From contig CAZUCZ010000002.1 of the NCBI GenBank assembly GCA_964618925.1, positions 1-48,299 on the forward strand: 48,299 nt of DNA, in the 5' to 3' direction. Both the position numbers and the translations under genes were made by a program. The first letter of the stretch is position 1, and every line of letters starts with the position of its first letter. The notes below the pieces were generated by a model, which did no database searches, was not told the DNA's origin, and saw only the letters and a program-made list of their open reading frames with translations. Shown here in pieces: positions 14,008 to 32,684 of this stretch. This stretch comes from an uncultured Candidatus Saccharibacteria bacterium. Lineage in GTDB: Bacteria; Patescibacteriota; Minisyncoccia; Phycocordibacterales; UBA9973.

Positions 14008-14010
14008 TAT

Positions 14011-15864: not shown

Positions 15865-15879
15865 AAGAGTTTGGCTTTT
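15852..15879 (+). terminator. Rho-independent terminator overlapping the virB4 stop codon
   Basis: Perfect 11-bp stem agccaaactct / agagtttggct with loop aaa, followed by ttt. Confidence 0.6.
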
Positions 15880-15923
15880 GGTGCAAAAGAGGGGAAGGGC
15901 TTTGTAGAAGTTTCGCTACAGGG

Positions 15924-15929
15924 TATAAT
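15924..15929 (+). promoter_or_regulatory. -10 box TATAAT 7 nt upstream of the ATG at 15937
   Basis: gggtataattaatactATG. Confidence 0.35.
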
Positions 15930-15936
15930 TAATACT

Positions 15937-16926: not shown

Positions 16927-16927
16927 A

Positions 16928-17000
16928 ACCTGTCCCGTATTAAATTTTTGATTAAAGCAAATGACCATTATAAATAACAACTTAAAATTTTAGTACTGGG
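16928..17000 (+). repeat. CCCGTA-hairpin repeat, family B, copy 2
   Basis: acctgtcccgtattaaatttttgatt ... aaaattttagtactggg directly abutting the ATG at 17001. The interior resembles copy 1. Confidence 0.7.
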
Positions 17001-18161
17001 ATGAAAAAACTTTTATCTCATATATTTATTTTTATCTCAATCGTTGCAGTATGTAATGGTTCATTACAGGTATATGCAGCACCTGGTGATATAGACTGTA
17101 GTCTACCTTCAAACCAAAATAATATAGAATGTCTTACCCCGGTACAATCATCGACAACAGCCGAACAAAGAGCGATAGATGCCCAGCAGCAAGCGCAAGA
17201 ATTATTACGAGTCAGTGAAGCAGCAAAAAATGGGAAATTAGCTGGTGAAAATACAGTAGGAGATGGAAGCTATCATCTCCTCCAACCCCTCCCTTGTAAA
17301 GACGGAGAGGAAGGATGTGTAAATGGGAAACTTACATCTTTTAACCCTGCAGAGAGTGGTAAACTCGGAGAATATTTAAACTTTGGTATTAGATTGTTTA
17401 TTGGGTTATGTGCAGTAGCGGCAGTGGTAATGATTGTAGTAGGTGGTATTGAGTATGCAACCAGTGAGTTAAGTCATAGTAAGACTGCAGCGAAAGATAG
17501 GATATATAATGCGATCTTTGGGTTATTGCTTGCTCTGGGATCATATACGATCTTGTATACGGTAAATCCTGACTTGCTGAAGACTGATTTTGATGTGGGT
17601 GGGGGGACGCTGACGAGTAGTGGGGAGATATCAATAAAAGAGTTAGAAGAAAGAATTATTACCGTTGGAGGTCCAATTACTGATAAAAACCGAGGTAGCA
17701 TTGGTACTCCTTGTGATGCTAATGTCATTTTTAACGCAGCACAATCTGCTGGTCGTACTTTAACTAAAGAACAGGCAGCTGCTATGGGATGTATCGGTGG
17801 AGCTGAATCTGGGGGGTGTAAAAATGTACAAGCTAATGTCACAGGAGTAACTAGTAGTGCTTCTGGTCCATTTCAAATTTTAGGATCAAATAGAACAAGA
17901 CTTGGTAACACCACAGCCTGTAAAAACAATCCAAGTAGTCTTGAATGCAATGCTACAATAGCTGCAGGATTATTACTAAGACAAACAAATTATCGAGACT
18001 GGCTAGATACTCAATACCCATGTAGTAATGCAAAATGTGTGATTAGATTTGATCCTCAGAAGGTAGATAGAGGAGTACAACTTCCAGAGTGGGTAAAGGT
18101 TGGTAAAAACTGGGTAAAAACAGACAGGAAAAGAAATCCTTATACAGGTTGTGGTTTGTAA
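17001..18161 (+). CDS. Pilin-like (VirB2/TrbC-type two-TM module) protein fused to a C-terminal lytic-transglycosylase-like domain
   Basis: Signal peptide, then LLQPLPC...FGIRLFIGLCAVAAVVMIVVGGI (TM1), a charged loop, and AIFGLLLALGSYTILYTV (TM2). The C-terminal part has GGAESGG...SASGPFQI, resembling the SLT catalytic E-S and G-x-x-Q-I motifs. Confidence 0.6.
   Translation: MKKLLSHIFIFISIVAVCNGSLQVYAAPGDIDCSLPSNQNNIECLTPVQSSTTAEQRAIDAQQQAQELLRVSEAAKNGKLAGENTVGDGSYHLLQPLPCKDGEEGCVNGKLTSFNPAESGKLGEYLNFGIRLFIGLCAVAAVVMIVVGGIEYATSELSHSKTAAKDRIYNAIFGLLLALGSYTILYTVNPDLLKTDFDVGGGTLTSSGEISIKELEERIITVGGPITDKNRGSIGTPCDANVIFNAAQSAGRTLTKEQAAAMGCIGGAESGGCKNVQANVTGVTSSASGPFQILGSNRTRLGNTTACKNNPSSLECNATIAAGLLLRQTNYRDWLDTQYPCSNAKCVIRFDPQKVDRGVQLPEWVKVGKNWVKTDRKRNPYTGCGL
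17277..17612 (+). repeat. 336-bp inverted repeat, copy 1 (pilin module); partner at 32121..32456
   Basis: Manual alignment to the reverse complement of 32121..32456. Positions 17277-17533 are identical (257 nt). Six mismatches lie in the last 79 nt, all synonymous. Confidence 0.95.
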
Positions 18162-18191
18162 TACTTAAAATAAGTATTAATAGATAAGCAA

Positions 18192-18200
18192 TGATATAAT
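18192..18200 (+). promoter_or_regulatory. Extended -10 (TGaTATAAT) 9 nt upstream of the ATG at 18210
   Basis: atgatataatatatcatacATG. Confidence 0.4.
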
Positions 18201-18209
18201 ATATCATAC

Positions 18210-19631
18210 ATGTCGAAAAGAAATTTTATACTTTTAATAATCATTTTGAGTATAGTCCTCGTAGGACTACTTGGTTATTTTTATATGAGTAGAAATACTC
18301 CAACAGGAGACAGCGCAATCCCTGGAGTAAATTTCCTTTCACAATTCAACCCTTTTAAAAGTAATGTAAATACAGACACAGGGAGCGAAAACCCTGGGGC
18401 AGGTGATACTGGTGGTGACCAACCCGGAGAAAACGGAGAAACCCCAATCACCACCCTCCACAAAGTCTCGAATATGCCTATCGCTGGCTTTATCGTCTAC
18501 CCCAAAGAAAGATTGAAAGAAATACCACCAGAAGATACAACGACAGGAGGAGAGAGCAACGTCACCACGACCCCAGTAGAAGAAATACCGAATGATAGTG
18601 CTACATCGAGTTCACGCACGACAGTCGCAGCAGATCTAAAGAAAAAGTTACTCGTCACAAAAAAGCCAATTGTTCCAGACACAGAGTTTGTCACCGCTGT
18701 AAGATATGCAGATCGTGCGAGTGGAAATATCTATCAGTCATTTGCAGACAAGATCCAAGAACACAAGTTCTCGGGAACAGTGATCCCTAAAATATACGAT
18801 GCGTATTTTGGCAATAATGCGAATGCCGTCTTAATGCGACATCTTAAAATAGACAATGTAACTATCGAGACTTTCTTAGGCACACTACCTAAAGAAAAAT
18901 TAGGAGATGACACAACCACAATAGCTGAAATGAAAGGGGGCTTTTTAACTAACAATATACAAGATGTTAGTGTTTCACCTGACGGATTAAAGGTGTTTTA
19001 TCTCTCTCCTGTAGGAGACGGGGTAATAGGCACAATACAAAATCTAATAGATGGTAAAAAGAATCAAATATTTAACAATGCATTTACCGAATGGAATTCA
19101 TGGTGGCCAAATAATAATGTCATTACACTTACCACCAAGCCTTCTTTTGGAACACTCGGCTATATGTATATGATCGATATCGCAAAGAAAAGCTTTACGA
19201 AAGTACTCGGCGACATTAATGGACTCACCACACAAATGAGCCCAAATGGTAAGCTCGTGCTTGTAGGCACCAATGATTTATCCCTCTACGTATATCATGT
19301 CGACACAAAGACCTACGACAAATTAGGTGTAAAAACACTCCCAGAAAAATGCACTTGGAATAAGGTAAGTGACACTGTATATTGTGCAGTCCCAAGCACT
19401 ATCGAGACTGCAAACTATCCAGATGATTGGTATCGTGGAGAAATATCGTTCTCTGATCAGATTTGGAAAATCAATCTTCAAGATGGAAGTACAACACTGA
19501 TCGCAGATCCACTTGTGATCTCAGGCGGGGAGGACACTGATGGTATCCAACTTGCAGTCGACACAAACGAAGATTACTTATTCTTCATAAATAAAAAAGA
19601 CTCCTTTTTATGGGAGCTTGAATTAAAATAA
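18210..19631 (+). CDS. Membrane-anchored hypothetical protein with a low-complexity linker and beta-propeller-type (PD40/TolB-like) repeats
   Basis: N-terminal TM segment ILLIIILSIVLVGLLGYFY and a G/T/P-rich linker. Repeats such as VSPDGLKVFYLS and MSPNGKLVLVGT are present. Confidence 0.65.
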   Translation: MSKRNFILLIIILSIVLVGLLGYFYMSRNTPTGDSAIPGVNFLSQFNPFKSNVNTDTGSENPGAGDTGGDQPGENGETPITTLHKVSNMPIAGFIVYPKERLKEIPPEDTTTGGESNVTTTPVEEIPNDSATSSSRTTVAADLKKKLLVTKKPIVPDTEFVTAVRYADRASGNIYQSFADKIQEHKFSGTVIPKIYDAYFGNNANAVLMRHLKIDNVTIETFLGTLPKEKLGDDTTTIAEMKGGFLTNNIQDVSVSPDGLKVFYLSPVGDGVIGTIQNLIDGKKNQIFNNAFTEWNSWWPNNNVITLTTKPSFGTLGYMYMIDIAKKSFTKVLGDINGLTTQMSPNGKLVLVGTNDLSLYVYHVDTKTYDKLGVKTLPEKCTWNKVSDTVYCAVPSTIETANYPDDWYRGEISFSDQIWKINLQDGSTTLIADPLVISGGEDTDGIQLAVDTNEDYLFFINKKDSFLWELELK

Positions 19632-19648
19632 ACTAGTAATAGTTTATT

Positions 19649-20140
19649 TTATATTTCGCCAACATATTTAATAACTACATGCCTCGTAGGTCCAAAACCT
19701 GCGGACTCTGTCTTTAAGTCAGACATTTCAGATAAAAACTCGTGTATAATACGACGATCAAATGCAGGCATAGGGTCAACCTCAACATTTGCTTTAAAAT
19801 ATCGTGCTCGTTCAGCCATCATGTGAGCAATCGTACGAATACTTTCAACTTTTCGTTTTTGAAAACCATTAATGTCAACGAGGATGGATGTATCGCGTTT
19901 CTTGTTCGTATTTTCTGCTACACTAGGGTTTGGTTCATTTACTTCTATTATTCTTCGTATAAGATGATTTAACGCTTGTAGAGCCTCTCCCTCATGCTGT
20001 GTAAAGAAATGTGGTTCATTCACTTCCACTGAAAACCATGTGGTGTTACCTTTGTCTTCAATGATCGTAATGTCAGCAACTTGCACTTTAGTCTTTTCAA
20101 TAAGTTCTTTTATTACATTTTTTATATCTTCGTGTTTCAT
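19649..20140 (-). CDS. jag: Jag/KhpB-type RNA-binding protein (KH + R3H)
   Basis: R3H-like motif RRIIHEFL...GFGPTRHVVIKY. Conserved position downstream of yidC. Confidence 0.8.
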   Translation of the reverse strand: MKHEDIKNVIKELIEKTKVQVADITIIEDKGNTTWFSVEVNEPHFFTQHEGEALQALNHLIRRIIEVNEPNPSVAENTNKKRDTSILVDINGFQKRKVESIRTIAHMMAERARYFKANVEVDPMPAFDRRIIHEFLSEMSDLKTESAGFGPTRHVVIKYVGEI

Positions 20141-20145
20141 ATGTA

Positions 20146-20904
20146 TTATTTGACTGAAAACTCAACATCAGTGACTTTTTCTTTCTTTAATTTATCTTGT
20201 TTACGGTTTACATAGATTTGTTGTGCCACCGCAAACAGATTACTTGTGATCCAATAGAGGGCAATCGCACCAGAAATCCTATATGCGATAAAGGCTACAA
20301 TGAAAGGAAAGATGTATTTCATCTGCAAATTCATGCTCTTACTAAAACTCTCAGCAAACCCACCTGGTTCATTATTAGATAGGCTTGGGGTCGGTGTAGG
20401 CATAAAATATGCTTGTAAATACTGGGAAATACCTGCGAGCACTGCAAGAAGTATACTTTTACCACTAATATCTAGGATACCAAGGAAGATCATATTCATA
20501 TGGTCCGGGATATGGATGAAAGAATACATTGCTTCGGGTTGGAAGCTGATACCCTTTAAAAATACATAATAAAGGGCAAAAATAATAGGAATCTGAATTA
20601 AAACAAGCAAACAACCTGAAAAAGGGTTGGTTTTATGTGTTTTATATAGCTCGAAGGTCAAGCGTGCTTGTTCTTCTTTACTTGCGCCACTATTTTTTAT
20701 TTTATTGATTTCAGGAGTTAATATAGCCATTTGAGCCTGGCTTTGTATGGATTTTTGAGAAAGAGGGAATAGGACGATTTTAACCAAAATAGTAAGCACT
20801 ATCACAGCAAGACCAACATCCCCTCCGGGGATGATTGAAATTAAAAACGCAAGGGCGTTTATAAGAGGATGATATAAAACTATATTCCATATATGAGCGA
20901 TCAT
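20146..20904 (-). CDS. yidC: Membrane protein insertase YidC (short form)
   Basis: QAQMAILTPEINKIK...ELYKTHKTNPFSGCLLVLIQIPIIFALY signature and synteny with rnpA/yidD. Confidence 0.9.
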   Translation of the reverse strand: MIAHIWNIVLYHPLINALAFLISIIPGGDVGLAVIVLTILVKIVLFPLSQKSIQSQAQMAILTPEINKIKNSGASKEEQARLTFELYKTHKTNPFSGCLLVLIQIPIIFALYYVFLKGISFQPEAMYSFIHIPDHMNMIFLGILDISGKSILLAVLAGISQYLQAYFMPTPTPSLSNNEPGGFAESFSKSMNLQMKYIFPFIVAFIAYRISGAIALYWITSNLFAVAQQIYVNRKQDKLKKEKVTDVEFSVK

Positions 20905-20914
20905 TAGGTCATTC

Positions 20915-20958
20915 TACCCCGAAGTAAAATTTTTAGCAAAATTTACTACGGGGCAAGT
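20915..20958 (-). repeat. CCCGTA-hairpin repeat, family B, short diverged copy between yidD and yidC
   Basis: The minus strand reads acttgccccgtagtaaattttgctaaaaattttacttcggggta. It has the same left-arm motif as copies 1-3 with a short loop. Confidence 0.6.
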
Positions 20959-20971
20959 AGGAAAAATTTCT

Positions 20972-21187
20972 TTATTTTACTGGGTCGATATGATTTGTCT
21001 GCCACGGATGACAACGCAAAATACGCAAAAATCCTAAATATATGCCCTTGAAAACCCCGTATTTATCGATTGCTTGCTGTGTATACATAGAACAGGTAGG
21101 GTAAAAAACACAATTTCGCTTAAAAAAGACTGAAATATAACGCTGATAGAGACTAATGAACTGTATTATATATTTTTTTAATTTCAT
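20972..21187 (-). CDS. yidD: Membrane protein insertion efficiency factor YidD
   Basis: CVFYPTCSMYTQQAIDKYG...ILRCHPW motif. The start is taken at MKLKKY, giving a 35-nt overlap with rnpA. Confidence 0.85.
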   Translation of the reverse strand: MKLKKYIIQFISLYQRYISVFFKRNCVFYPTCSMYTQQAIDKYGVFKGIYLGFLRILRCHPWQTNHIDPVK

Positions 21188-21479
21188 CTTCGAGTGTGGA
21201 AACGTCGTCTTGATACTTTTTAAACACAAAAACACCCAAGAAACCAGTGGGGAATAGGTCTATATACTTTGAGAGAGCTTTATAACCCCTTCGACGCAAA
21301 AGATTCCTTTTCACTGCCAGTTTTGCAACGTTTTTAGGAGCGATAAAGGATATACGAGGGGGTAACGTATCCTGTGTATGTATATATCTAAAGGTTAAAT
21401 GAGGAGATGCCAAAAAACCACCCTCTGTAAAGAGGCGGTTTATGTGTTTTTTGTCTACTCGATTGTTTTTGGAGAGCAT
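21153..21479 (-). CDS. rnpA: Ribonuclease P protein component
   Basis: 108 aa and basic, with an LSKNNRV.K..I..LF..G pattern. Lies between rpmH and yidD. Confidence 0.85.
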   Translation of the reverse strand: MLSKNNRVDKKHINRLFTEGGFLASPHLTFRYIHTQDTLPPRISFIAPKNVAKLAVKRNLLRRRGYKALSKYIDLFPTGFLGVFVFKKYQDDVSTLEDEIKKIYNTVH

Positions 21480-21552
21480 CCCAGTACTAAAATTTTAAAT
21501 TATTAATAATAGTGACTGATATACGCTATGTGAATTTAGTACGGGACAAGTA
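21480..21552 (-). repeat. CCCGTA-hairpin repeat, family B, copy 3, between rpmH and rnpA
   Basis: The minus strand reads acttgtcccgtactaaatt...aaaattttagtactggg directly abutting the rnpA ATG. Confidence 0.7.
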
Positions 21553-21571
21553 ATACACCCAAAAGAGGGAA

Positions 21572-21706
21572 CTACACAGAGAGTTTCGCTCGTCCTTTTC
21601 TTCTTCTTCGTGTGAGAACAGCAGAACCTGTCTTTGTTCTAGATCTAACTAGAAAACCGTGGGTTCGAGCTCTTTTTCTCTTTTTTGGTTGGTATGTTTG
21701 CGACAT
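21572..21706 (-). CDS. rpmH: 50S ribosomal protein L34
   Basis: Hand translation gives [44 protein letters not shown] (44 aa). It is below the ORF-track size cutoff. Confidence 0.9.
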
Positions 21707-21806
21707 AGCTTTAATATACATCAAAAGTGGGCTTTAGGCAAATATATTCTGATTCTTGGAAAATACTACTCAGGTATAAAGAGGTATATTGCCATGCCTC
21801 AGATTG

Positions 21807-21815
21807 TTATCCACA
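21807..21815 (+). promoter_or_regulatory. Perfect DnaA box TTATCCACA upstream of dnaA
   Basis: Exact 9-mer in the rpmH-dnaA intergenic region. Confidence 0.6.
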
Positions 21816-21869
21816 GCTTATCAACATAGTTATTATTTTTGTAAATGTTTCATTTTTGAGTCCAAGTAG

Positions 21870-21875
21870 TATAAT
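21870..21875 (+). promoter_or_regulatory. -10 box TATAAT 9 nt upstream of the dnaA ATG
   Basis: agtagtataatgtcttacacATG. Confidence 0.4.
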
Positions 21876-21884
21876 GTCTTACAC

Positions 21885-23231
21885 ATGGATACAAAAGAAC
21901 TTTGGAGGAATTGTTTGATTCACATTGAAGCCAACTTATCTAAAGCTAATTTTAGTACGTGGTTTAAAAATACCTCTATTTTAAAAGAAGAAATGGGAAT
22001 TATCTATATACGAGTCCCAAATGAGTTCGTACGTGATTGGTTAATGAACAAATATCACAAACTTATCACTAAAACCATTGCTGATGCACATGAAAACATG
22101 CGGGGAGTTGAGTATGTCATTACAAAAATAGAGCCAAATAGACAAGAAAATGACACCATGAGTAAAGCTCCTTATATTAATAAGGAGTTACCTCTCCGAG
22201 ATCTATATATCAACCCAGATGACAACTTAAATCCTCGCTATCACTTTGATTCTTTCATTGTGGGTGGCTTTAATGAGCTGGCTTATGCTGCAGCCCAAGC
22301 CATAATCGAAAGTCCTGGTACAAAATACAATCCTTTTTTCATTTATGGACCAACTGGGCTTGGTAAAACTCACCTTCTCCAAGCAGTGGGGAATACTATT
22401 AAAGAAAAGTATGAGAATAAGAAAGTGCATTATATGACTCTGGAAAAGTTTGCAACTGATTTTATAAACTCACTGCAGAGCAACAAAGCTAATTCTTTTA
22501 AAGAGAAATATAGAAAATACGACTTACTCATTATAGATGATATTCAATTCATAGGAAAAATGGAAAAAATTCAAGAAGAACTTTTCCATACATTTAATAC
22601 ATTCTATGAAAACAACAAGCAGATAATATTTTCTTCTGACAAACACCCTAATTATATTCCTGAGCTTGCGGATAGATTAAAATCAAGATTTTCTGCAGGA
22701 ATGATAGTGGATGTTTCAATGCCAGAATACGAATCACGCCTCGCAATCTTGAAAGTAAAACTAAAAGAATTAAATATAGACCTCGAACCAGAAGTTGTAG
22801 AGTATATTGCTTCAGCAGTAGAGGGCAACATCCGTGAGCTGGAAGGCAGCCTAAATATCATTGTATGCCAATATCGCCTTAAAAATAGACCTATTACGTT
22901 GTTTGAGGTAAAAAACTTACTCAAAAACAACATGAAGCCAAAGAAAAATATTGCGATAAAAGAAGTAGTGAAGATAGTAGGGGATTATTACAAAATAGAA
23001 GAATCTTCGATCTATGAAAAAATAAGAAAAAAAGAGATTGTAAAAGCAAGACAAGTGATCATGTATTTACTTCGTGAAGACTTTAATATTTCATATCCTC
23101 TTATTGGACAGAAATTAGGTGGTAAGGATCATACTACGGTTATACATTCATGTCTTAAGATAAAAGAAGATTTAAAAAATGATCCGCAGTTATTACAAGA
23201 ATTAGAACAGATCCGTATTATGTTTAAATAG
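21885..23231 (+). CDS. dnaA: Chromosomal replication initiator protein DnaA
   Basis: Walker A GPTGLGKTHL, AAA+ motifs, and a C-terminal DNA-binding helix (GGKDHTTVIHSCLKI). Confidence 0.95.
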   Translation: MDTKELWRNCLIHIEANLSKANFSTWFKNTSILKEEMGIIYIRVPNEFVRDWLMNKYHKLITKTIADAHENMRGVEYVITKIEPNRQENDTMSKAPYINKELPLRDLYINPDDNLNPRYHFDSFIVGGFNELAYAAAQAIIESPGTKYNPFFIYGPTGLGKTHLLQAVGNTIKEKYENKKVHYMTLEKFATDFINSLQSNKANSFKEKYRKYDLLIIDDIQFIGKMEKIQEELFHTFNTFYENNKQIIFSSDKHPNYIPELADRLKSRFSAGMIVDVSMPEYESRLAILKVKLKELNIDLEPEVVEYIASAVEGNIRELEGSLNIIVCQYRLKNRPITLFEVKNLLKNNMKPKKNIAIKEVVKIVGDYYKIEESSIYEKIRKKEIVKARQVIMYLLREDFNISYPLIGQKLGGKDHTTVIHSCLKIKEDLKNDPQLLQELEQIRIMFK

Positions 23232-23455
23232 TTGTTTATAAGATGGTGATAAGTGTAAATAAAATTGTGAATAAAAAAGGATAAATAAATTGTTTTTGTA
23301 AAATAAAAAAAATTTAACACAAAAACAAAAAGTTATTATATAGAAATCAAATAAAAAATAATCAGAATAACCAATAGTATCAATGTAAAAATAATTTATC
23401 CACTTATTAACAACACTAATAGTATTAATAAATTTAATAGATAAGATATAAACAT
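23232..23455. other. Candidate oriC / DNA-unwinding region (dnaA-dnaN spacer)
   Basis: 224-bp, extremely AT-rich spacer with DnaA-box-like 9-mers: tgtgaataa at 23266-23274 and ttatccact at 23396-23404, each 1 mismatch from consensus. Confidence 0.5.
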
Positions 23456-24553: not shown

Positions 24554-24556
24554 TAT

Positions 24557-24814
24557 ATGATTGAAATAAAAGATCTTTTATCGCGATTCAATGATATTTT
24601 ATTTTCTGAAGAAATAAAAATTCAAGCGATACAAGGTGTATTAGAGAAAATCATACACTTAAAAATAGCACACACAGATATAAAAATAAAAAACAATAAT
24701 ATTTATTTAAATATTAAACCTATTTATAAAAACGAAATTTTTCTCCACCAAGAAAAAATCTTTTCTTTATTAGAAGAGACTTTGGGTAAAAAATCACCTA
24801 AAAATTTTAGATAG
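24557..24814 (+). CDS. Small hypothetical protein, possibly DUF721/DciA-like
   Basis: 85 aa, 3 nt after dnaN. The pattern DIKIKNNNIYLNIKP..KNEIFLHQEKIFSLLEETLG resembles the C-terminal half of DUF721 proteins. This is a weak call from memory. Confidence 0.4.
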   Translation: MIEIKDLLSRFNDILFSEEIKIQAIQGVLEKIIHLKIAHTDIKIKNNNIYLNIKPIYKNEIFLHQEKIFSLLEETLGKKSPKNFR

Positions 24815-27010
24815 TTAGTTGGTGATGATTGGTAGACCACCATATTTGTATTTATTCTGAGCCCACCAGTTTTGTACAGGGATTTCCCAGTGATTGAATT
24901 GAGGATCACTTTCTGGATTTGTTGGGGCTGGTCCAGTGACATCGTTCTTGTTTACAAAGTATAGAATAGTGTGGACATCGCCTTGCCATTCTCCACGGAG
25001 GATTGGTTTTGTGTTTGGGTCTATATATAGATCCGGTGCTTCAAATTTTTCGTCAGGAATTTTTTGTAAGGCTTGAGTTATAAAATCATGCCAGATTGGT
25101 CCTGCAAGTGCAGCTCCACCTTTTTTCATTGGTTTATTGTCGTTATTTCCTGCCCAGACACCCACCGCGATAGAAGGCGTGTATCCTACAGTCCAAGCAT
25201 CTTTGTTGTTGTTTGTTGTTCCTGTTTTTACTGCTACATCTCTCCCTGGGATTTCTAGTACAGAATGGGCGCCAAATGTAGGAATACGTGATTCATCACG
25301 TTTCAAAATGTCTGACATAGTAAGCGCTGTGTTTTTAGGTAATACTTCAATTTGATTTGGTTGATATTCTTCTAGAACCTGACCAGTCGCGTCTTCTATT
25401 TTTAGAATTCCGGTGTAAGGATTGCGTACACCATTATTTCCAAAAACACTATATGCAGACGTGAGATCAAGTAATGTGACTTCACCACCTCCGATAACGA
25501 GTGTAAGCCCATAACGGCTTATATCGCTCAATGTGGTGATACCCATGGCTTGGGCTGTCTTCAGTGAATTATTTAGCCCAGCGAGGTAGAATAGCTTTAC
25601 TGCAGGTATGTTTCTCGATTCTGCAAGTGCGCTACGTAGGGTGATCGGTCCGACAGTCTTACCATCATAATCTTGTGGCATATAGCATTCTGATTGGCTG
25701 TGCCCTGGGAGTGCTTTACCATATGCATTACAAGTTGTTTGGAATTCTGTAGGTACATCAAATAATATGGTACTCGGTGTAAAACCTTCATTAAATGCAG
25801 TCGCATAGATAAATGGTTTAAATGAAGAACCTGGTTGACGCGCTGCGGTTGCGACATTGAAATTCCCATCTATGTCTTTATCAAAATAATCTCTAGACCC
25901 TACCATTGTTAAGATTTGCCCTGTTTTTGGATCTATTGCCACTAGTGCAGCATTTGTACCATTCCAATCTTTTGTATTCTTTAAGGCGCCATCTTTGACT
26001 ATTTGTTCACCTTTCGCTTGGAGATCATAATCAAGGGTGGTGGTGACTTTGAGTCCACCAGATTCGAGTATACCTGGACCATATTTTTGTTCTATGTAGT
26101 CTTTGATGAAAAATACAAAGTGGGGAGCCTTGATACCAGTATTTGATTGAGGCATAAATGTTACCACTTCATTTTTTGCAGCATCATATTCTGCTTGCGT
26201 TATGAATTTAAGCGCGAGTTCTCGAGAAAGGACTAGGTTCTTTCTCGCTTCGAGTTTGTCTCTATTTTTGCCATAGGGCGATAGTAGTGTAGGGGATTGA
26301 GGTATTGCTGCGAGGTATGCAGATTCGGCGATAGTGAGATCTCTTGCACCCTTATTGAAATACGTACGACTTGCTTCTTCGACTCCATATATATTGCCCC
26401 CATATGGGTTTTCATTGAGATAATATTCAAGAATTTTATCTTTTGGGAGAGACCGGTCGATCTTTATTGCGAGTATCCATTCTTTTATTTTTCTTGTGTA
26501 AGATTTTTCGGGTGTAAGGAGAGTATTCTTTACGAGTTGTTGGGTGATGGTCGATCCTCCTTGGGTGCGTCCAATACTGAGGAAATTTGCTAACGCAGCA
26601 CGAATGATCGAAGTGACTCGTATGCCTCCATGACTATAAAATTCGGCATCTTCTATGGCAATCGTCGCATTCTTGATATTAATACTCATGTCTGCAAATC
26701 CGATATCTGTCCTTTTTTCATCTCTATGGATATCGTACAAGACGACGGTGCCTGTGCGATCATATATTTTTGTAGAGTTTTCCACTTTTCTATCTTGGAA
26801 TGAATGAAAATCAGGAATCTGCAATGTGGAAAGCCAGATGATAATAACCGCAACAATAAACACACAAATCCCCGCACTAAACAAAAGTACGTTTTTCCAG
26901 AAATGGTGGTTTTTCTTAATATGTTTTACTGTTTTTTTGATCCAGGTGTGTATGTTTTTGATGAATGTATCCATTAATACAATCATATCAGAAAAACAAA
27001 TATTTCTCAT
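24815..27010 (-). CDS. ponA: Class A penicillin-binding protein (glycosyltransferase + transpeptidase)
   Basis: GT51 motifs EDAEFYSHGG and RTQGGSTITQQLVKN, transpeptidase motif SSFKP, and an N-terminal TM anchor. Confidence 0.9.
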   Translation of the reverse strand: MRNICFSDMIVLMDTFIKNIHTWIKKTVKHIKKNHHFWKNVLLFSAGICVFIVAVIIIWLSTLQIPDFHSFQDRKVENSTKIYDRTGTVVLYDIHRDEKRTDIGFADMSINIKNATIAIEDAEFYSHGGIRVTSIIRAALANFLSIGRTQGGSTITQQLVKNTLLTPEKSYTRKIKEWILAIKIDRSLPKDKILEYYLNENPYGGNIYGVEEASRTYFNKGARDLTIAESAYLAAIPQSPTLLSPYGKNRDKLEARKNLVLSRELALKFITQAEYDAAKNEVVTFMPQSNTGIKAPHFVFFIKDYIEQKYGPGILESGGLKVTTTLDYDLQAKGEQIVKDGALKNTKDWNGTNAALVAIDPKTGQILTMVGSRDYFDKDIDGNFNVATAARQPGSSFKPFIYATAFNEGFTPSTILFDVPTEFQTTCNAYGKALPGHSQSECYMPQDYDGKTVGPITLRSALAESRNIPAVKLFYLAGLNNSLKTAQAMGITTLSDISRYGLTLVIGGGEVTLLDLTSAYSVFGNNGVRNPYTGILKIEDATGQVLEEYQPNQIEVLPKNTALTMSDILKRDESRIPTFGAHSVLEIPGRDVAVKTGTTNNNKDAWTVGYTPSIAVGVWAGNNDNKPMKKGGAALAGPIWHDFITQALQKIPDEKFEAPDLYIDPNTKPILRGEWQGDVHTILYFVNKNDVTGPAPTNPESDPQFNHWEIPVQNWWAQNKYKYGGLPIITN

Positions 27011-27062
27011 GTAAAATACAATATATTTTTGATTTTATCGCTGATTATGATACTGTTTAATT

Positions 27063-28247: not shown

Positions 28248-28252
28248 ACAAT

Positions 28253-28277
28253 AAAAGACCCCTAAGCGGGGTCTTTT
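28253..28277. terminator. Bidirectional hairpin terminator between tyrS and the small acidic ORF
   Basis: aaaagacccc-taagc-ggggtctttt, a GC stem flanked by an A-run and a T-run. Confidence 0.65.
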
Positions 28278-28280
28278 ATA

Positions 28281-28418
28281 TTAGTGATAGGCATCTTCTG
28301 GATCGTCTGATTCATCATCTAGGTCTATAGGACCGAGCGCATCATCACCGTCGTCGATGAATTCATCTTCGTCAAAGTCATTCATCTTGAAATCACCATC
28401 ATCTTCATCATAACTCAT
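28281..28418 (-). CDS. Putative 45-aa extremely acidic peptide
   Basis: Hand translation gives MSYDEDDGDFKMNDFDEDEFIDDGDDALGPIDLDDESDDPEDAYH. It is followed by the 28253 hairpin and is below the track cutoff. Confidence 0.35.
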   Translation of the reverse strand: MSYDEDDGDFKMNDFDEDEFIDDGDDALGPIDLDDESDDPEDAYH

Positions 28419-28690
28419 ATGAAATATTGTTTTTTATTTTTAACACCCCTAGTAATGCCTCCTTTGTAACAAAATATAAAAAACTTAGCAATAGAAAATG
28501 TGGATAAGTCCCAATTTTATTTTTATAAAATAAATTAGAAAATTGAGGATCCCGCCAAAGGCGGGATAAAGTAGATAATAACTCAGTTTCAAGCTTGCTG
28601 ACCATGATTTTTTATGTTAAAAACAAGATAGAAAAAACACAAAAATTAGTCATGGGGATTAATTGGGAAGTGTTCTTTCTAAGGAAAAGT

Positions 28691-28894
28691 ATGTCTATTT
28701 ACATCAAAGAAGAAGAGAGATTTTCTTCTAATAAAGAAAACAAATCTGGGTCACTGGATCCAGACCGCGAGTTGCCAAAAGATGAGTTTTGCTTAGAAGG
28801 CTCTAATTCTTCTGAACAAATACATTTTTCAAAACAACCTGAAGAACCTGTGGTCCAAAAAATTGAATATAACAATGACGCACTTTGGGACTAA
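28691..28894 (+). CDS. Putative small hydrophilic protein (67 aa)
   Basis: Internal Met of ORF 28595..28894, preceded by aaggaaaagt (SD-like) and followed by the 28907 hairpin. No homology recognised. Confidence 0.3.
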   Translation: MSIYIKEEERFSSNKENKSGSLDPDRELPKDEFCLEGSNSSEQIHFSKQPEEPVVQKIEYNNDALWD

Positions 28895-28906
28895 AATTAT
28901 GATTGA

Positions 28907-28936
28907 AGAAAATTTATAGCCGGTATTCTCTAGGGA
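28907..28936. terminator. Bidirectional hairpin terminator (small ORF / ruvC)
   Basis: 12-bp stem tagccggtattc / gaatgccggcta with one G-U pair, flanked by A/T runs. Confidence 0.6.
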
Positions 28937-28949
28937 ATGCCGGCTAATT

Positions 28950-29456
28950 TTATTTATGATCAATTTTTAAGTAGGCAAATGCGGTGAGAGCGATAGCTAT
29001 CGCATCGAGCTCATCATCAGAGGTTTTACTTTTTTCCTCGCCAAGGCATACAGGTAAGTCTACGAGCATCTGCACCATTTTTATAATCTGACTTTTATCA
29101 GCTTTACCGTATCCCGTAGTCGCTACCTTGATTTGCAGGGGAGTAGCTTCGAATATTTTTAAATCTGCCCGCATGGCTTCATAGAGGAGTACCCCTCGTG
29201 CTTCGGCTACATGCATGACTGTCTTTTGGTTTGTAGTCAAAAACAATGTCTCGATAGATACGGCATCTGGTTTGTATTTTTTGATTACATTTCGCACTTC
29301 ATCACCGAGAAGGAGTAGCCGCTTTGAAAATTCGAGCTTGCTCGACGTCTTAAAACACTCAGAAAAGAGGACTTTTTCCTTTTTATCTCCAATATTCTTC
29401 TCGAGCACCGCAACCCCAAGCCTTTCGTACCCCGGATCTATTCCTAGAATTCTCAT
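28950..29456 (-). CDS. ruvC: Crossover junction endodeoxyribonuclease RuvC
   Basis: MRILGIDPGYERLGVAVLE N-terminus and typical size (168 aa). Confidence 0.9.
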   Translation of the reverse strand: MRILGIDPGYERLGVAVLEKNIGDKKEKVLFSECFKTSSKLEFSKRLLLLGDEVRNVIKKYKPDAVSIETLFLTTNQKTVMHVAEARGVLLYEAMRADLKIFEATPLQIKVATTGYGKADKSQIIKMVQMLVDLPVCLGEEKSKTSDDELDAIAIALTAFAYLKIDHK

Positions 29457-29497
29457 ATGTTGATTTTAACACTATTATTAGGTTCCCCATAATATGC

Positions 29498-29526
29498 TTG
29501 CAATATATAGACATGTATGGTTATAT
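29498..29526 (+). promoter_or_regulatory. Putative promoter TTGCAA-17 nt-TTATAT
   Basis: ttgcaa at 29498-29503 and ttatat at 29521-29526. It would give a roughly 130-nt leader for the 29664 gene. Confidence 0.4.
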
Positions 29527-29536
29527 ACACAATAGA

Positions 29537-29606
29537 GACAAGATTAAGTTGTTTTTACAACTTATGGTGCTTGTCACTAATAAAGTTCCCAGAACTTGTT
29601 CTGTGG
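29537..29606 (+). promoter_or_regulatory. Structured 5' leader (two hairpins) upstream of the small secreted-protein gene
   Basis: gacaag..[taagttgt-tttt-acaactta]..cttgtc (29537-29575) and cccagaac-ttg-ttctgtgg (29588-29606). Confidence 0.4.
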
Positions 29607-29663
29607 AAAAATATAAACGTTCTTTGATTCTACTCTATTGAATTGAGTAAGGAGTTAAATAAA

Positions 29664-30002
29664 ATGAAAAAAATTAAAAATTTTTTTAACATGCTTGTTG
29701 TAGCCATTTCATTGCTTGTGGAAGGTGTGGTAAAATCCATTGCACCACAAAATCAACTCGCTTTCGATGCGGGAACCGGAGCAAATATTCCTAACACTAT
29801 CGTCGGTGCTGGTGATAGCGACAAGGGAGCAGGTCCAAAGGCTAAAAGCGGATTCTTCACATTGAATCGAAATTCAAATAACGGAAATACAACAGGTTCA
29901 TTCTGGCGAGGTAATAAACTTACAGCAGTCGAAGGTGAGGACAATCAACCAGAGGAAGAAGAAGTCGTCGATGAAAACTCTGAAGCTGAAAATAACGTCT
30001 AA
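29664..30002 (+). CDS. Small secreted hypothetical protein with an acidic tail (112 aa)
   Basis: ATG preceded by aaggag. Signal-like segment MKKIKNFFNMLVVAISLLVEGVV. C-terminus EEEEVVDENSEAENNV. Confidence 0.55.
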   Translation: MKKIKNFFNMLVVAISLLVEGVVKSIAPQNQLAFDAGTGANIPNTIVGAGDSDKGAGPKAKSGFFTLNRNSNNGNTTGSFWRGNKLTAVEGEDNQPEEEEVVDENSEAENNV

Positions 30003-30147
30003 TTTTTGTTGAAAAATATGAGGTGTTTTAAGTTAAAAAGATAGGTCCGGGACGACATTCCCGAGAAGGTCTTCTTGAAATAGAGGATGAAAAATAAGAG
30101 GAACTCTATAAGTTTTCCTCGAGATTTAAAATCTCAATCAAAAAATT

Positions 30148-30180
30148 AAAGCACTGGGACCTTACGGGACCAGTGCTTTT
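30148..30180. terminator. Bidirectional hairpin terminator (29664 gene / ruvB)
   Basis: aaagcactgg-gaccttacggga-ccagtgctttt. Confidence 0.55.
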
Positions 30181-30186
30181 CTACTT

Positions 30187-31230
30187 TTAGTTTGTTTCTG
30201 GAAATTCGAACCCGAGGTGGTCGTATGCTTTTTTCGTAGCTACACGCCCACGAGCGGTGCGTTCGAGGAGTCCGAGCTGGATGAGGTAGGGTTCTATGAC
30301 TTCTTCGACGGTAGCTTCTTCTTCACTCATCGCTGCAGCGATGGTTTTAATGCCGACAGGTCCACCACCAAATTTATCTATCAATATCTCAAGGAATTTT
30401 CTATCATTTTGATTTAATCCCATTTCATCTATGGCGAGCATATTTAATGCATCACGCACTATCTTTTTATCTAGTTTAGCAATATCTGTACCCACCGAAG
30501 GGGAACCTTTGACTTGGGCAAAATCACGCACCCGTTTCAAGAAATAATTTGCGGTACGTGGGGTAAATCTACTTCTCTTAGCTATCTCTTCTAGTGCTTC
30601 TTGTTCGAGTGCAATATCCAAAAGTTTACTTGATCTATCCACGATCTGTTCGATCTCTTCATTTGAATAAAATTCTAATCTAAATACTCCACCAGAGAAA
30701 CGTGAACGCAGTGGAGAAGATACGAGCGCCACACGAGTGGTCGCAGCGATAAGTGTAAAGGGTGGTAGATCGAGTTGGATGGTCCGCGCCGAAGGACCCT
30801 TGCCGATGATTATGTCGAGCACGCCTGACTCCATGGCAGGGTAGAGGATTTCTTCAACCATTTTATTAAGTCTGTGTATTTCATCTATGAATAAGATGTC
30901 TCCAGAAGAAAGGTTGGTTAGGATGGATGCGAGGTCGCCGACTTTCTCAATCGCCGGACCAGAAGTGATTTTCATCTGACGTCCTGTCTCGCGAGCAATC
31001 AAGTGCGCGAAGGTAGTTTTACCCAAACCCGGTGGCCCATAGAATAAAATATGCTCTGGGATATGTCCGCGTCCGCTTGCTGCATCGAGAAGTATCTTCA
31101 CATTGTCTTTTATGTGTTTTTGACCTATGTATTCATCCCATCTACTCGGACGGAGTGCTTGATCCAGGAAAGAATCATCAGATTTTTCAGATTTAGGAGG
31201 GGTATTTTTCTTTGTAATATCACTTGACAT
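30187..31230 (-). CDS. ruvB: Holliday junction branch migration ATPase RuvB
   Basis: Walker A GPPGLGKTT, Walker B LFIDEIHRL, and the C-terminal winged-helix region. Confidence 0.95.
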   Translation of the reverse strand: MSSDITKKNTPPKSEKSDDSFLDQALRPSRWDEYIGQKHIKDNVKILLDAASGRGHIPEHILFYGPPGLGKTTFAHLIARETGRQMKITSGPAIEKVGDLASILTNLSSGDILFIDEIHRLNKMVEEILYPAMESGVLDIIIGKGPSARTIQLDLPPFTLIAATTRVALVSSPLRSRFSGGVFRLEFYSNEEIEQIVDRSSKLLDIALEQEALEEIAKRSRFTPRTANYFLKRVRDFAQVKGSPSVGTDIAKLDKKIVRDALNMLAIDEMGLNQNDRKFLEILIDKFGGGPVGIKTIAAAMSEEEATVEEVIEPYLIQLGLLERTARGRVATKKAYDHLGFEFPETN

Positions 31231-31384
31231 TGTTTTTATATTATGCTATATTGTTTGAGTCCACAGAAGTAGGGTGTTTATCAACACAGTATTCACACCT
31301 CTATACACATTATAGCATTTTATTGTATTTACACTGTTTTTTACGTAGTACAATATGTGTAGTCAAGGGCAGGCACGTTTTTTT

Positions 31385-31408
31385 AAAAAAATCCACCGCA
31401 TAGCGGGG
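31385..31408 (-). terminator. Rho-independent terminator (minus strand) downstream of the pilin-NlpC/P60 gene and the 141-nt element
   Basis: The minus strand reads ccccgctatgcggtgg followed by attttttt. Confidence 0.5.
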
Positions 31409-31416
31409 TAAAGAAG

Positions 31417-31557
31417 ACATTAATCTCTAAGCAATCAGCCACCGGTTATATGATTTTGCGTAGGACGTTTTGGTTAGATTTATCTTTCTGGTACTATCCT
31501 ACAATAATTTATTACTTTTAGAACTTAGTTCCAAAAGGATTGTTTAGAGATTAATGT
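31417..31557. repeat. 141-bp element closed by a 19-bp inverted repeat (structured RNA or MITE-like)
   Basis: acattaatctctaagcaat (31417-31435) against attgtttagagattaatgt (31539-31557), with 1 mismatch. Inner hairpins are ttttggaac/gttctaaaa and gtagga/tcctac. Confidence 0.6.
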
Positions 31558-31565
31558 TTTTTTAT

Positions 31566-32684
31566 TTAAAGTCGTTTAACGTATTTTATTTTACCCTTTA
31601 AATATCTACTATTTATACTTTCTGTTTTTACACCATCTGCACGCCTCGTGCTTTCTATAACTAATCCATTACCAATATACATCATAACGTGTCCTATTTT
31701 TATTCCTCCATTTCCTGCTTGCCAACCCACCAGGTCTCCAACTCTGAGTGGTATACCATCAATTGAAGTACCATCTGTGCTAATAGAACCAACATTTGAT
31801 ACATTACCACTACTAAATATCTGCGCAGTTGTTTCTCCTGGACTAGAGATACCAACACATTTATACACCTGAGCAACATACGAGGAACAGTCAGTATAAA
31901 GTATATTTCCAGAAATTTGATTTCTCTTATCCATACTATAGGAAGTTTTTCCCATAAAAGATTGAGCAGTTGATAATAATGCTGGAGATCCACCACCTCT
32001 GCATTGTATACCTAACGCTTCTAGTTTTTTATTTTCAACCGCGGTAAAAGGAATATTCACATTTTCGTTACTAATATTCTGCTCAATATAACTATTGATA
32101 GCTTGCTCCCCCCCACTGCTCAGCGTCCCCCCACCCACATCAAAATCAGTCTTCAACAAGTCAGGATTTACGGTATACAAGATCGTATATGACCCTAATG
32201 CAAGCAATAACCCAAAGATCGCATTATATATCCTATCTTTCGCTGCAGTCTTACTATGACTTAACTCACTGGTTGCATACTCAATACCACCTACTACAAT
32301 CATTACCACTGCCGCTACTGCACATAACCCAATAAACAATCTAATACCAAAGTTTAAATATTCTCCGAGTTTACCACTCTCTGCAGGGTTAAAAGATGTA
32401 AGTTTCCCATTTACACATCCTTCCTCTCCGTCTTTACAAGGGAGGGGTTGGAGGAGGTTATAATTGCCATCTCCTGTCGTTGATGTTTTTGTTGCAGCTG
32501 GTGTTACGTTTGATGGATTCTCAGGCGGTGTATTTTGACCAGAAGAATCTATTGGAGGGGGTGTAGAGTAATCGGGGTAATCAATACCAGGAGTGGGGTA
32601 ATATTGTGCTTTAACATCCAAAAAAGAAGTAAAAAATACTATAGCTATAAGTATTATTAAAAAATATAACGAATATTTTTTCAT
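31566..32684 (-). CDS. Pilin-like (VirB2/TrbC-type two-TM module) protein fused to a C-terminal NlpC/P60 peptidase domain
   Basis: Signal peptide, then a roughly 112-aa pilin module identical to that of the 17001 gene. The C-terminal part has YTDCSSYVAQVY (catalytic Cys context) and IGHVMMYIGNG (His), the NlpC/P60 signature. Confidence 0.65.
   Translation of the reverse strand: MKKYSLYFLIILIAIVFFTSFLDVKAQYYPTPGIDYPDYSTPPPIDSSGQNTPPENPSNVTPAATKTSTTGDGNYNLLQPLPCKDGEEGCVNGKLTSFNPAESGKLGEYLNFGIRLFIGLCAVAAVVMIVVGGIEYATSELSHSKTAAKDRIYNAIFGLLLALGSYTILYTVNPDLLKTDFDVGGGTLSSGGEQAINSYIEQNISNENVNIPFTAVENKKLEALGIQCRGGGSPALLSTAQSFMGKTSYSMDKRNQISGNILYTDCSSYVAQVYKCVGISSPGETTAQIFSSGNVSNVGSISTDGTSIDGIPLRVGDLVGWQAGNGGIKIGHVMMYIGNGLVIESTRRADGVKTESINSRYLKGKIKYVKRL
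32121..32456 (-). repeat. 336-bp inverted repeat, copy 2 (pilin module); partner at 17277..17612
   Basis: Its reverse complement matches 17277..17612 with 6 mismatches. Confidence 0.95.

Follow-up and report, generated by a model that had tools for sequence, protein, structure and literature searches.

Shufflons and related invertible switches, such as R64 Rci/pilV, Hin/Gin and the hsdS inversions, act at short recombination sites with a dedicated recombinase gene nearby. Inversion at the sap locus of Campylobacter fetus, studied by Dworkin and Blaser, is reportedly RecA-dependent and takes place between conserved 5' regions of opposed S-layer gene cassettes, and is said to move a single promoter so that one cassette alone is expressed. 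The Salmonella genes tufA and tufB flank oriC, one on each side, and undergo concerted evolution (Abdulkarim & Hughes 1996; Hughes 2000; Paulsson et al. 2017, PMC5485169; Brandis et al. 2019, PMC6735719), with up to 50% of recombination events generating an inversion that carries a fitness cost (PMC6735719). In Saccharomyces, the chromosome XIV 'flip/flop' region shows an inversion polymorphism that is conserved from species to species, since each lineage keeps homogenising the inverted-repeat genes on its flanks (Salzberg et al. 2022, PMC9731477). For Paceibacteria, a 2025 article (Microb Genom 2025, PMC12102498) places a VirB4/PrgI/T4SS_pilin cluster next to rnpA, rpmH, dnaA and dnaN and notes pilin paralogues; searches of its text yielded diverged pilin arrays (mean 25%, maximum 54% identity) and no mention of inversion, of pilin–hydrolase fusions or of a second, homogenised copy next to PilB.

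The pilin–hydrolase gene pair described here is probably a variant of the tufA/tufB type of co-evolution with inversion. As in that system, inverted paralogous sequences flank the origin and would be held in concert by homologous recombination, with the same events inverting the origin-containing segment to give a state that would be viable but disfavoured. The two systems differ in segment size (14.5 kb here, 761 kb in Salmonella), in the host, here an uncultured, ultra-small Patescibacterium, and in that only a ~340-nt internal module is homogenised, within two otherwise unrelated multidomain genes, such that crossover would make chimeric proteins with exchanged enzymatic heads. Within the window (the whole stretch of DNA analysed, 48,299 nt), the two genes and the repeat arms inside them are located as follows:

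17001-18161, plus strand: gene A, 386 aa; signal peptide, coiled linker, T4SS_pilin module, Cys-rich lysozyme-like head
31566-32684, minus strand: gene B, 372 aa; signal peptide, Pro-rich linker, T4SS_pilin module, NlpC/P60 head
17277-17612, plus strand: left arm, pilin-like module DNA of gene A, with a weaker extension over 17258-17638
32121-32456, minus strand: right arm, pilin-like module DNA of gene B, with a weaker extension over 32095-32475
17277-17533, plus strand: 257-nt core, 100% identical to the reverse complement of 32200-32456

Base-by-base comparison of 17277-17612 with the reverse complement of 32121-32456 found six mismatches (left-arm positions 17534, 17535, 17537, 17540, 17561 and 17577), confirming the first-pass annotation, which had described a 336-bp inverted repeat with six synonymous mismatches and an identical first 257 nt. 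Both arms are in codon phase 0 in their genes and encode the same 112 aa, so all six mismatches are synonymous. A repeat search of the window reported one long inverted repeat, 17258-17638/32095-32475 (381 nt, 95%). Given six mismatches in 336 nt, an identical run of 257 nt has a permutation P of 0.0011, and none of 200,000 permutations reached such a run when all 20 mismatches across 381 nt were used; the clustering of mismatches at one repeat end is not due to chance, and the 257-nt core is the most recent conversion tract in the window. The earlier description of the flanks as unrelated holds farther out, where both the N-terminal linkers and the C-terminal heads of genes A and B are unrelated, but not immediately beside the repeat, where weak homology is kept for ~19 nt upstream and ~25 nt downstream (residues GDG-S/N-Y-H/N and T/S-S-S/G-GE).

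The repeat is the coding DNA for a VirB2-like T4SS_pilin two-helix membrane module common to both proteins, matched to PF18895 at 27.7 bits in gene A (aa 93-204), for which an AF2 model places a helical hairpin at 121-187, and at 26.4 bits in gene B (aa 77-188). Pfam likewise bears out the NlpC/P60 head proposed for gene B (PF00877, 49.5 bits), while the 'SLT' head proposed for gene A stands weakly, as a lysozyme-like domain with an invariant E-S motif whose match to SLT_3 (E=0.018) falls below threshold. Among species, the heads of cluster-side genes vary widely, encompassing NlpC/P60, VanY, M15_4, YkuD and lysozyme-like domains.

Between and beside the arms lie the following features:

17613-32120, no strand: segment between the arms, 14.5 kb; both heads, o473, jag, yidC, yidD, rnpA, rpmH, dnaA, dnaN, an 85-aa ORF, PBP1, tyrS, ruvC, ruvB and a candidate ncRNA
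12866-16926, plus strand: T4SS-like cluster directly upstream of gene A, assigned by domain matches and synteny in relatives
12866-13291, plus strand: PrgI/VirB3-like gene of the cluster
13369-14007, plus strand: TraC-like gene of the cluster
14011-15864, plus strand: VirB4/TraG P-loop gene of the cluster
15871-16926, plus strand: o351, unassigned ORF of the cluster
18210-19631, plus strand: o473, unassigned ORF just after the cluster-side pilin gene (gene A in the window)
21572-23231, no strand: putative origin region with rpmH, DnaA-box pair and dnaA
21572-21706, minus strand: rpmH
21807-21826: DnaA-box pair between rpmH and dnaA
21885-23231, plus strand: dnaA
28950-29456, minus strand: ruvC, a Holliday-junction gene within the segment, downstream of gene B
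30187-31230, minus strand: ruvB, likewise a Holliday-junction gene within the segment, downstream of gene B
32692-34398, minus strand: PilB-type (T2SSE) ATPase directly upstream of gene B

The first-pass gene list for the segment (jag-yidC-rnpA-rpmH-dnaA-dnaN-PBP-tyrS-ruvCB) was right, and Pfam agrees with its placement of a T4SS-like cluster beside gene A and PilB beside gene B. The segment also holds yidD, a 473-aa ORF of no assigned family, the 85-aa ORF and the candidate ncRNA, which is conserved. The position of the cluster beside the dnaA region and the presence of pilin paralogues resemble the arrangement described for Paceibacteria (PMC12102498). The repeat pair has its midpoint at 24866, ~3 kb away from the putative origin region, and inversion would be tolerated because the segment is nearly symmetric about the origin. 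As in shufflons and invertible switches, inversion here would exchange C-terminal portions between pilus or surface proteins without breaking the reading frame, but the window has neither short recombination sites nor a nearby recombinase gene: Pfam identified no recombinase or invertase among its larger ORFs, including every ORF adjoining genes A and B.

Besides that of the window, at least five Nomurabacteria-like lineages have an A/B-type gene pair around the same jag-to-ruvB segment, the bracketing pair being present in JGI Ga0558121_06680, CAYREQ (L005/L006), JANPIZ (L007/L010) and JGI 3300060670 (L167/L168). Within genomes, module DNA identity is 98.1% in the window, 100% in JGI 3300056625, 96.8% in JGI 3300060670, 91.8% in CAYREQ and 82.7% in JANPIZ, whereas between genomes it is 60-74%, with the exception of one closely related pair (84-87%); Nei–Gojobori dS of the modules is 0-0.45 within and 0.5-2.9 between genomes. 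In all six lineages, within-genome identity far exceeds that between genomes, and the elevated identity of module pairs extends to five lineages besides that of the window, in which modules are much closer to their own-genome partner than to positional orthologues. In JANPIZ, identity is 94% over the last 219 nt only, a partial tract. These comparisons (83-100% identity within genomes) strongly support the concerted evolution of the modules by repeated gene conversion, as first proposed from the window. Recent duplication or insertion of the module independently in each lineage, as domain shuffling rather than ongoing conversion of old paralogues, would suit the clear shuffling of heads and linkers across evolutionary time; it is very unlikely, as at least six lineages would each have had to undergo a like module-sized replacement at the same pair of positions, and the graded identities (100, 98, 97, 92 and 83%), the JANPIZ tract and edge-decaying homology fit repeated conversion, a module-sized replacement derived from a paralogue being in practice a conversion event. 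The coupling of inversion with within-lineage homogenisation of flanking inverted-repeat genes is reminiscent of flip/flop, although that system is eukaryotic, involves 4-kb whole-gene repeats near a centromere and yields no chimeric proteins.

The N-terminal linkers, too, have been reshuffled between the two loci from species to species: the window gene A linker resembles that of the JGI PilB-side gene, and the linker of the ENA cluster-side gene resembles those found on the PilB side in SRR304 and JGI2. In L169, the head has been replaced without inversion. Both observations go beyond module-to-module exchange alone.

An assembly artefact, with near-identity arising from repeat collapse or bubble-popping and/or a contig chimeric at the repeat, could be suspected of a window that is one whole metagenome contig with an exact 257-nt core longer than common k-mer and read lengths. 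It is extremely improbable: gene order matches that from independent pipelines (JGI, SPAdes NODE contigs and MEGAHIT k141 contigs), the edges of the repeat match a protein-domain boundary in all lineages, and six mismatches are kept in the window with copies 3-17% apart in other assemblies, so identity was not forced by assemblers.

Evidence for inversion comes from the assemblies of relatives, the window's genes A and B having 54-60% protein identity to their nearest relatives. Comparison of related genomes for the inverted arrangement identified two near-identical pairs with alternative junctions. The ENA contigs L003 and L004 are collinear at 99.9% identity over positions 1-10578, through the T4SS cluster and module, after which 7471 nt of the dnaA segment are reverse-complemented at 100% identity; the breakpoint is the module 3' end, and the cluster-side gene thereby acquires a different head. 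L008 runs from a T4SS flank through the module and an NlpC/P60 head to a PilB-side element, which in all other genomes carrying the PilB-side gene separates that gene from ruvB, and L008 differs by one mismatch in 919 nt from L085, which has a PilB flank, the module and head being common to the two contigs and the upstream flanks different. Both pairs appear to differ as the predicted inversion with in-frame head swap would make them. The two contigs in this second orientation (L004 and L008) are taken to be real; both are short-read SPAdes metagenome assemblies, one at 3x coverage and one a co-assembly, and each spans an exact repeat (~350 nt) longer than a read, hence a mis-join is possible. 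The inversion first proposed from the window is thus supported by these junctions, with the reservation that the window's own orientation is far commoner (~16 repeat crossings against two); ~150 cluster-side loci of other species share it, although most may lack a second copy.

Conversion alone, with L004 and L008 mis-assembled and a segment that (almost) never inverts in nature, would fit with both cases being SPAdes assemblies at low coverage or from co-assembly, with the overwhelming dominance of the window's orientation and with the search of database proteins for the reciprocal junction, which found none. We regard this as possible but rather unlikely, since conversion and crossover at inverted repeats are mechanistically linked (up to 50% of tufA/tufB events invert; PMC6735719), the breakpoints fall exactly at the module in two independent cases, and random joins would place about half of crossings in the second orientation, against the two of ~18 observed.

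The probable explanation is that the repeat is real, conserved and driven by homologous recombination, with the module homogenised by conversion and the origin segment inverting occasionally as a by-product. Genes A and B would be old paralogues that flank the dnaA region in opposite orientations; in each, a signal peptide and a rapidly evolving linker precede the module, which is followed by an interchangeable peptidoglycan-hydrolase head. General homologous recombination, presumably of RecA/RuvABC type, would repeatedly copy one module onto the other, keeping the two near-identical within a genome while lineages diverge freely, over tracts that range from the entire module (the window and JGI 3300056625) to its 3' half only (JANPIZ), with a fresh 257-nt tract nested in an older one in the window. 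Exchanges resolved as crossovers would invert the 14.5-kb origin segment and, both copies being in the same codon phase, swap heads in frame between the T4SS-linked and PilB-linked genes. The orientations would differ in fitness, and the predominance of the window's orientation suggests that inversion is most likely an occasional by-product, probably mildly costly, rather than a programmed switch.

A programmed phase-variation switch, in which selection for frequent flipping keeps the inverted modules identical and reassorts hydrolase heads, would explain the arrangement, inverted orientation and homogenisation kept in at least six lineages, the in-frame swap, the occurrence of both junction states in near-identical strains, twice, and the wide differences between cluster-side heads. 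The C. fetus sap locus offers a parallel in its use of homologous rather than site-specific recombination at the conserved part of opposed paralogues, changing the variable C-terminal part joined to a fixed upstream part; here, however, each gene retains its own upstream operon, and essential replication genes lie within the segment. Such a switch is improbable: no invertase or other site-specific recombinase was identified among the window's larger ORFs, ~16 crossings in one orientation face two in the other, o473 follows the T4SS-side gene in all ~150 loci of the window's orientation sequenced past that gene, which argues for one favoured state, and copy divergence of 8-17% in some lineages would slow switching. 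If it were nonetheless true, the reassortment of heads between T4SS-linked and pilus-linked anchors would suit different host cell walls.

Two genes on opposite sides of the dnaA region share a layout of signal peptide, variable linker, pilin-like module and C-terminal hydrolase head:

17001-18161, + strand: gene A, 386 aa, beside the T4SS-like cluster
31566-32684, - strand: gene B, 372 aa, beside PilB

The module is encoded by the arms of an inverted repeat, and base-by-base comparison of 17277-17612 with the reverse complement of 32121-32456 exactly reproduced the near-identity reported by the first-pass annotation: six mismatches (17534, 17535, 17537, 17540, 17561 and 17577), with the 257 nt of 17277-17533 matching the other arm at 100%. 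Both arms stand in codon phase 0, and since their 112 encoded residues agree throughout, all six differences are synonymous. A repeat search extended the homology to 381 nt at 95% identity (17258-17638 / 32095-32475), the sole long inverted repeat in the window; the flanks, initially described as unrelated, are so only beyond the ~20 nt either side of the arms, in which weak homology persists. Mismatches are significantly clustered, as a 257-nt identical run given six mismatches has a permutation probability of P = 0.0011, and when the 381-nt repeat was taken in full, with its 20 mismatches, such a run was reached in 0 of 200,000 permutations.

The module, for which AF2 predicts two long helices (121-154 and 158-187) forming a hairpin, scores close to the gathering cut-off (26.6 bits) of the Pfam family T4SS_pilin (PF18895, VirB2-like), gene A lying above it at 27.7 bits and gene B, with the identical module, falling just short at 26.4. 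A classical pilin role is uncertain because a 180-aa enzyme is fused to the C-terminus. The NlpC/P60 head proposed for gene B was upheld by PF00877 (49.5 bits against a cut-off of 23, E = 4.5e-13). For gene A, the proposed SLT head is likely lysozyme-like: its SLT_3 match is weak (16 bits against a cut-off of 27, E = 0.018), and a head-only AF2 model (pLDDT 76) ranks MltE and lysozyme-like folds first in Foldseek at a non-significant E of ~2. This head is Cys-rich, with an E-S motif and G..Q invariant across 12-13 homologues, and its positional orthologues match more firmly, L006 to SLT_3 (E = 5e-6; whole protein 27.2 bits, just over the cut-off of 27) and protein P0019 to SLT_2 (E = 6e-6; whole protein 26.0 bits, just over the cut-off of 24.3). 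A sequence search of the gene A head against the PDB gave no match, and Foldseek matches of the whole-protein AF2 model of gene A (pLDDT 65) were set aside as meaningless.

Domain matches bore out the gene surroundings previously assigned. Upstream of gene A lie genes for PrgI/VirB3-like, TraC-like and VirB4/TraG P-loop proteins, the last separated from gene A by one ORF without assigned function (o351, 15871-16926, + strand); gene B instead adjoins, on its upstream side, a PilB-type T2SSE ATPase, followed by polA. Between the arms are o473 (unknown ORF, 18210-19631, + strand), jag, yidC, yidD, rnpA, rpmH (21572-21706), dnaA, dnaN, an 85-aa ORF, a class A PBP gene, tyrS, ruvC and ruvB. The segment thus holds dnaA and dnaN, and the repeat midpoint (24866) falls ~3 kb from a DnaA-box pair, one box perfect and one with a single mismatch, at 21807-21826, 60 nt upstream of dnaA. 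Across the window DnaA boxes show no enrichment (15 found against 14 expected), and GC skew climbs along its whole length with no origin signal; the presumed position of oriC near dnaA is accordingly set only by gene context and the one box pair.

Several features of this neighbourhood are recorded in their own right. The 85-aa ORF (24557-24814, + strand), directly after dnaN, recurs at the same place and with the same length in relatives (85 aa in L001/L002, the two loci of JGI Ga0558121_06680) and has no Pfam match. The entire 20-kb stretch to the left of dnaA, T4SS cluster included (21-19631, + strand), is transcribed toward the presumed origin, and would therefore run head-on to replication if oriC lies at dnaA; the order and orientation T4SS-pilin-o473-jag-yidC-rnpA-rpmH-dnaA is invariant across ~150 Paceibacteria loci (L002-L166). 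That the T4SS adjoins dnaA in Paceibacteria is already published (PMC12102498), and no mention of the head-on orientation turned up at keyword level in that paper. A short inverted repeat (16966-17003 / 21477-21514; 38 nt, 87%, of which 22 nt are exact, TTAAAATTTTAGTACTGGGATG, including the start codon) has its arms directly before gene A and rnpA; relatives lack this repeat, the o351 stop there abutting the pilin start, and it may be a trace of how gene A came by its unusual N-terminal linker.

By protein search both genes belong to a large Paceibacteria/Nomurabacteria family whose members fuse the module to diverse wall hydrolases (NlpC/P60, VanY, SLT_2, YkuD, Peptidase_M15_4 and Amidase_2). 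The nearest database relatives of the window proteins reach 60% and 54% identity, so that the databases hold no second genome of the window's organism, and no chimeric A/B protein was found among them. Module-alignment scans yielded 80 genome loci and 80 metagenome loci, which on marker mapping were nearly all cluster-side copies and rarely PilB-side ones. Every cluster-side locus of sufficient length follows the window's order (PrgI-TraC-VirB4-o351-pilin-o473-jag-yidC-rnpA-dnaA-dnaN-PBP-tyrS), with a head that varies by species between NlpC/P60, VanY, M15_4, YkuD and lysozyme-like. The second, PilB-side copy occurs in a subclade, where it lies upstream of ruvB and is inverted as in the window.

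Genomes with both copies, their loci, and DNA identity between the cluster-side and PilB-side modules
JGI Ga0558121_06680 (JGI 3300056625); L001/L002; 100% over ~345 nt, with abrupt borders
Window; genes A and B; 98.1%
JGI 3300060670 and 3300067032; L167/L168; 96.8% (JGI 3300060670)
MAG CAYREQ; L005/L006, contigs overlapping by 55 nt inside dnaA; 91.8%
MAG JANPIZ; L007/L010; 82.7%, with 94% over only the last 219 nt

The JGI 3300060670/3300067032 lineage additionally carries a GIY-YIG (homing-endonuclease-like) ORF between ruvB and ruvC (L168 12498-12761) and a serine-recombinase (PF07508) ORF ~6 kb upstream of the PilB-side pilin gene, both absent from the window.

Module copies within a genome are far closer (83-100%) than positional orthologues across genomes (60-74%, with the close pair CAYREQ and CAYYJU at 84-87%), and dS spans 0-0.45 within genomes against 0.5-2.9 between them. 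The modules therefore group by genome, with positions and flanks orthologous, a pattern that formally marks repeated gene conversion; the 257-nt identical run of the window and the last 219 nt of JANPIZ represent mosaic or partial tracts. Gene conversion between the modules, proposed initially from the window's uneven mismatches, is thus strongly supported by these comparisons, the elevated identity recurring in JGI Ga0558121_06680, JGI 3300060670, CAYREQ and JANPIZ. Constraint at the nucleotide level, through an embedded RNA or regulatory element, was rejected as the cause of the identity, since the modules of most genomes share only 60-74% with one another. A single recent duplication is ruled out by the genome-wise grouping of modules at orthologous positions. 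Different assemblers keep copy divergences of 0-17% and reproduce the same synteny, which makes it very unlikely that the repeats were collapsed or that the window contig is chimeric.

Whether conversion is accompanied by inversion of the segment between the arms (17613-32120), as the first-pass annotation had suggested, is addressed by two pairs of contigs. Two contigs of one ENA submission series, L003 (ERZ2855410 NODE_488) and L004 (ERZ2855235 NODE_587), are collinear at 99.9% over 10,578 nt comprising the T4SS cluster, pilin N-terminus and module, after which 7,471 nt of L003 equal the reverse complement of L004 at 100% identity. Past the module, L003 continues into a lysozyme-like head, o473 and jag through to dnaA, dnaN, PBP and tyrS, and L004 into a LAS/M15-like head, ruvB, ruvC, tyrS, PBP, dnaN, dnaA and rnpA; the break falls at the module's 3' end, and the difference matches the predicted inversion and head swap exactly, as read from short-read assemblies across an exact repeat. 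In the second pair, MAG CAYYJU (L008) bears an NlpC/P60 head on its cluster-side gene, followed by a ~150-nt element that in every other genome having a PilB-side gene lies between that gene and ruvB; in a Logan contig (L085) this module, head and element recur behind PilB after a different N-terminus, with 1 mismatch over the 919 nt that run from the module.

Set against these two exceptions, ~16 repeat crossings in the subclade show the window's orientation, and both exceptions are SPAdes short-read assemblies over an exact repeat, one at 3x coverage and one a co-assembly. A database protein search with P0006 did not recover the reciprocal junction of the ENA species (a PilB-type N-terminus joined to the P0006 head). 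On balance these contigs make natural inversion fairly likely in relatives, as distinct from the window's own lineage; the proposal of an invertible, head-swapping segment is thus supported in relatives, subject to the caveat on short-read assembly. The LAS/M15-like head of L004 contains a single frameshift (10780-10800), the remainder continuing in another frame to ...HLHVNFRGP*; either an assembly error at 3x coverage or genuine damage to the swapped gene could account for it.

The element beside ruvB is itself conserved:

31417-31557, - strand: candidate ncRNA, 9 nt after the gene B stop, upstream of ruvB
Copies: L001 4532-4691; L005 10824-10980; L010 10944-11115; L168 11091-11244
Copies: L004 11052-11203; L008 10883-11054; L169 2948-3063

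Its ~140 nt are 93-97% identical in DNA across genomes, the neighbouring proteins being merely 50-60% identical. The predicted fold has a 19-bp closing stem (14 and 5 bp around a one-base bulge), with compensatory changes at three pairs each in the inner hairpin and the small distal stem, and most genomes have a U-run behind it. The element, which is no tRNA and matches no Rfam family, is put forward as a candidate new structured RNA from conservation and predicted folding; a conserved extended -10 promoter (TGCTATAAT) lies ~100-130 nt downstream. A separate intergenic element of ~90 nt, perhaps MITE/REP-like or else serving as a common terminator or small RNA, has three copies (80-94% identical) with terminal inverted repeats AAACTTTTA...TAAAAGTTT:

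4249-4356: copy following uvrD
44325-44432: copy following uvrA
47912-48019: copy following the SpoU methylase gene

Linkers have been reassorted between the two loci across species, the linker of window gene A resembling the PilB-side linker of JGI and CAYUFE, and the ENA cluster-side linker those of the PilB side in L085 and protein P0013. In MAG CAYUFE (L169 1836-2948), compared with L001 3464-4522 of a species 89% identical, a lysozyme-like head replaces the LAS/M15-like head of the PilB-side gene, with the ruvB-side ncRNA element still behind it despite the new head, so that L169 reads as a head-cassette replacement without inversion. Linker exchange and this replacement imply that heads and linkers behave as cassettes around a homogenised core, and module-to-module crossover alone is insufficient for all of the mosaicism. 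The 'pilin' gene of the T4SS cluster is, in sum, best read as encoding a cell-wall hydrolase that is anchored in the membrane and carries exchangeable heads.

Textbook homologous recombination of inverted repeats, acting here between the inverted modules, is the best-supported mechanism: a non-reciprocal outcome would homogenise the module, and a reciprocal one would flip the segment that contains the origin, exchanging the heads in frame. With 336-381 nt of coding homology that varies in sequence between lineages, the repeat is unlike a short specific recombination site; no recombinase (Hin/Gin/Rci or tyrosine or serine invertase) was found by Pfam in the window's larger ORFs, including all those adjoining genes A and B. 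The Holliday-junction genes ruvB and ruvC are encoded in the window; recA is not. The closest known case is tufA/tufB of Salmonella, two genes that flank oriC on either side and undergo concerted evolution (PMC6735719; PMC5485169), with inversion arising from up to 50% of recombination events and being viable but costly because operon order is broken (PMC6735719). That cost parallels the single dominant orientation seen here, in which o473 is kept with the T4SS operon; unlike tufA/tufB, only an internal domain is common to both genes, so that crossovers would create chimeric enzymes. Chimeric products also link the system to the Campylobacter fetus sap inversions and to shufflons, with the difference that the window shows no dedicated recombinase. 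A eukaryotic parallel of homogenised inverted repeats is the yeast flip/flop region, where an inversion polymorphism persists via continual repeat homogenisation (PMC9731477).

A programmed, adaptive switch is conceivable, though improbable. Equally doubtful is a conserved origin-spanning flip-flop, run by homologous recombination, in a Nomurabacteria-like clade, in which the identical module lets hydrolase heads and o473/ruvBC reassort reversibly between the T4SS and the type IV pilus (PilB) operon; if true, it would offer adaptive variation for attacking or attaching to different hosts, without a dedicated invertase. A life on other microbes is presumed for Patescibacteria, and in the one species tested the origin-proximal T4SS is essential for it (as cited in PMC12102498). 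Structural polymorphism of this kind at the origin would confront assemblers and binners of these genomes. The novelty lies in the setting and its conservation, not in the principle: a subclade has a second copy beside PilB, and recombination couples both copies across the replication origin, giving a natural example of concerted evolution limited to a single domain within multidomain proteins and a simple recombination route to domain swapping.
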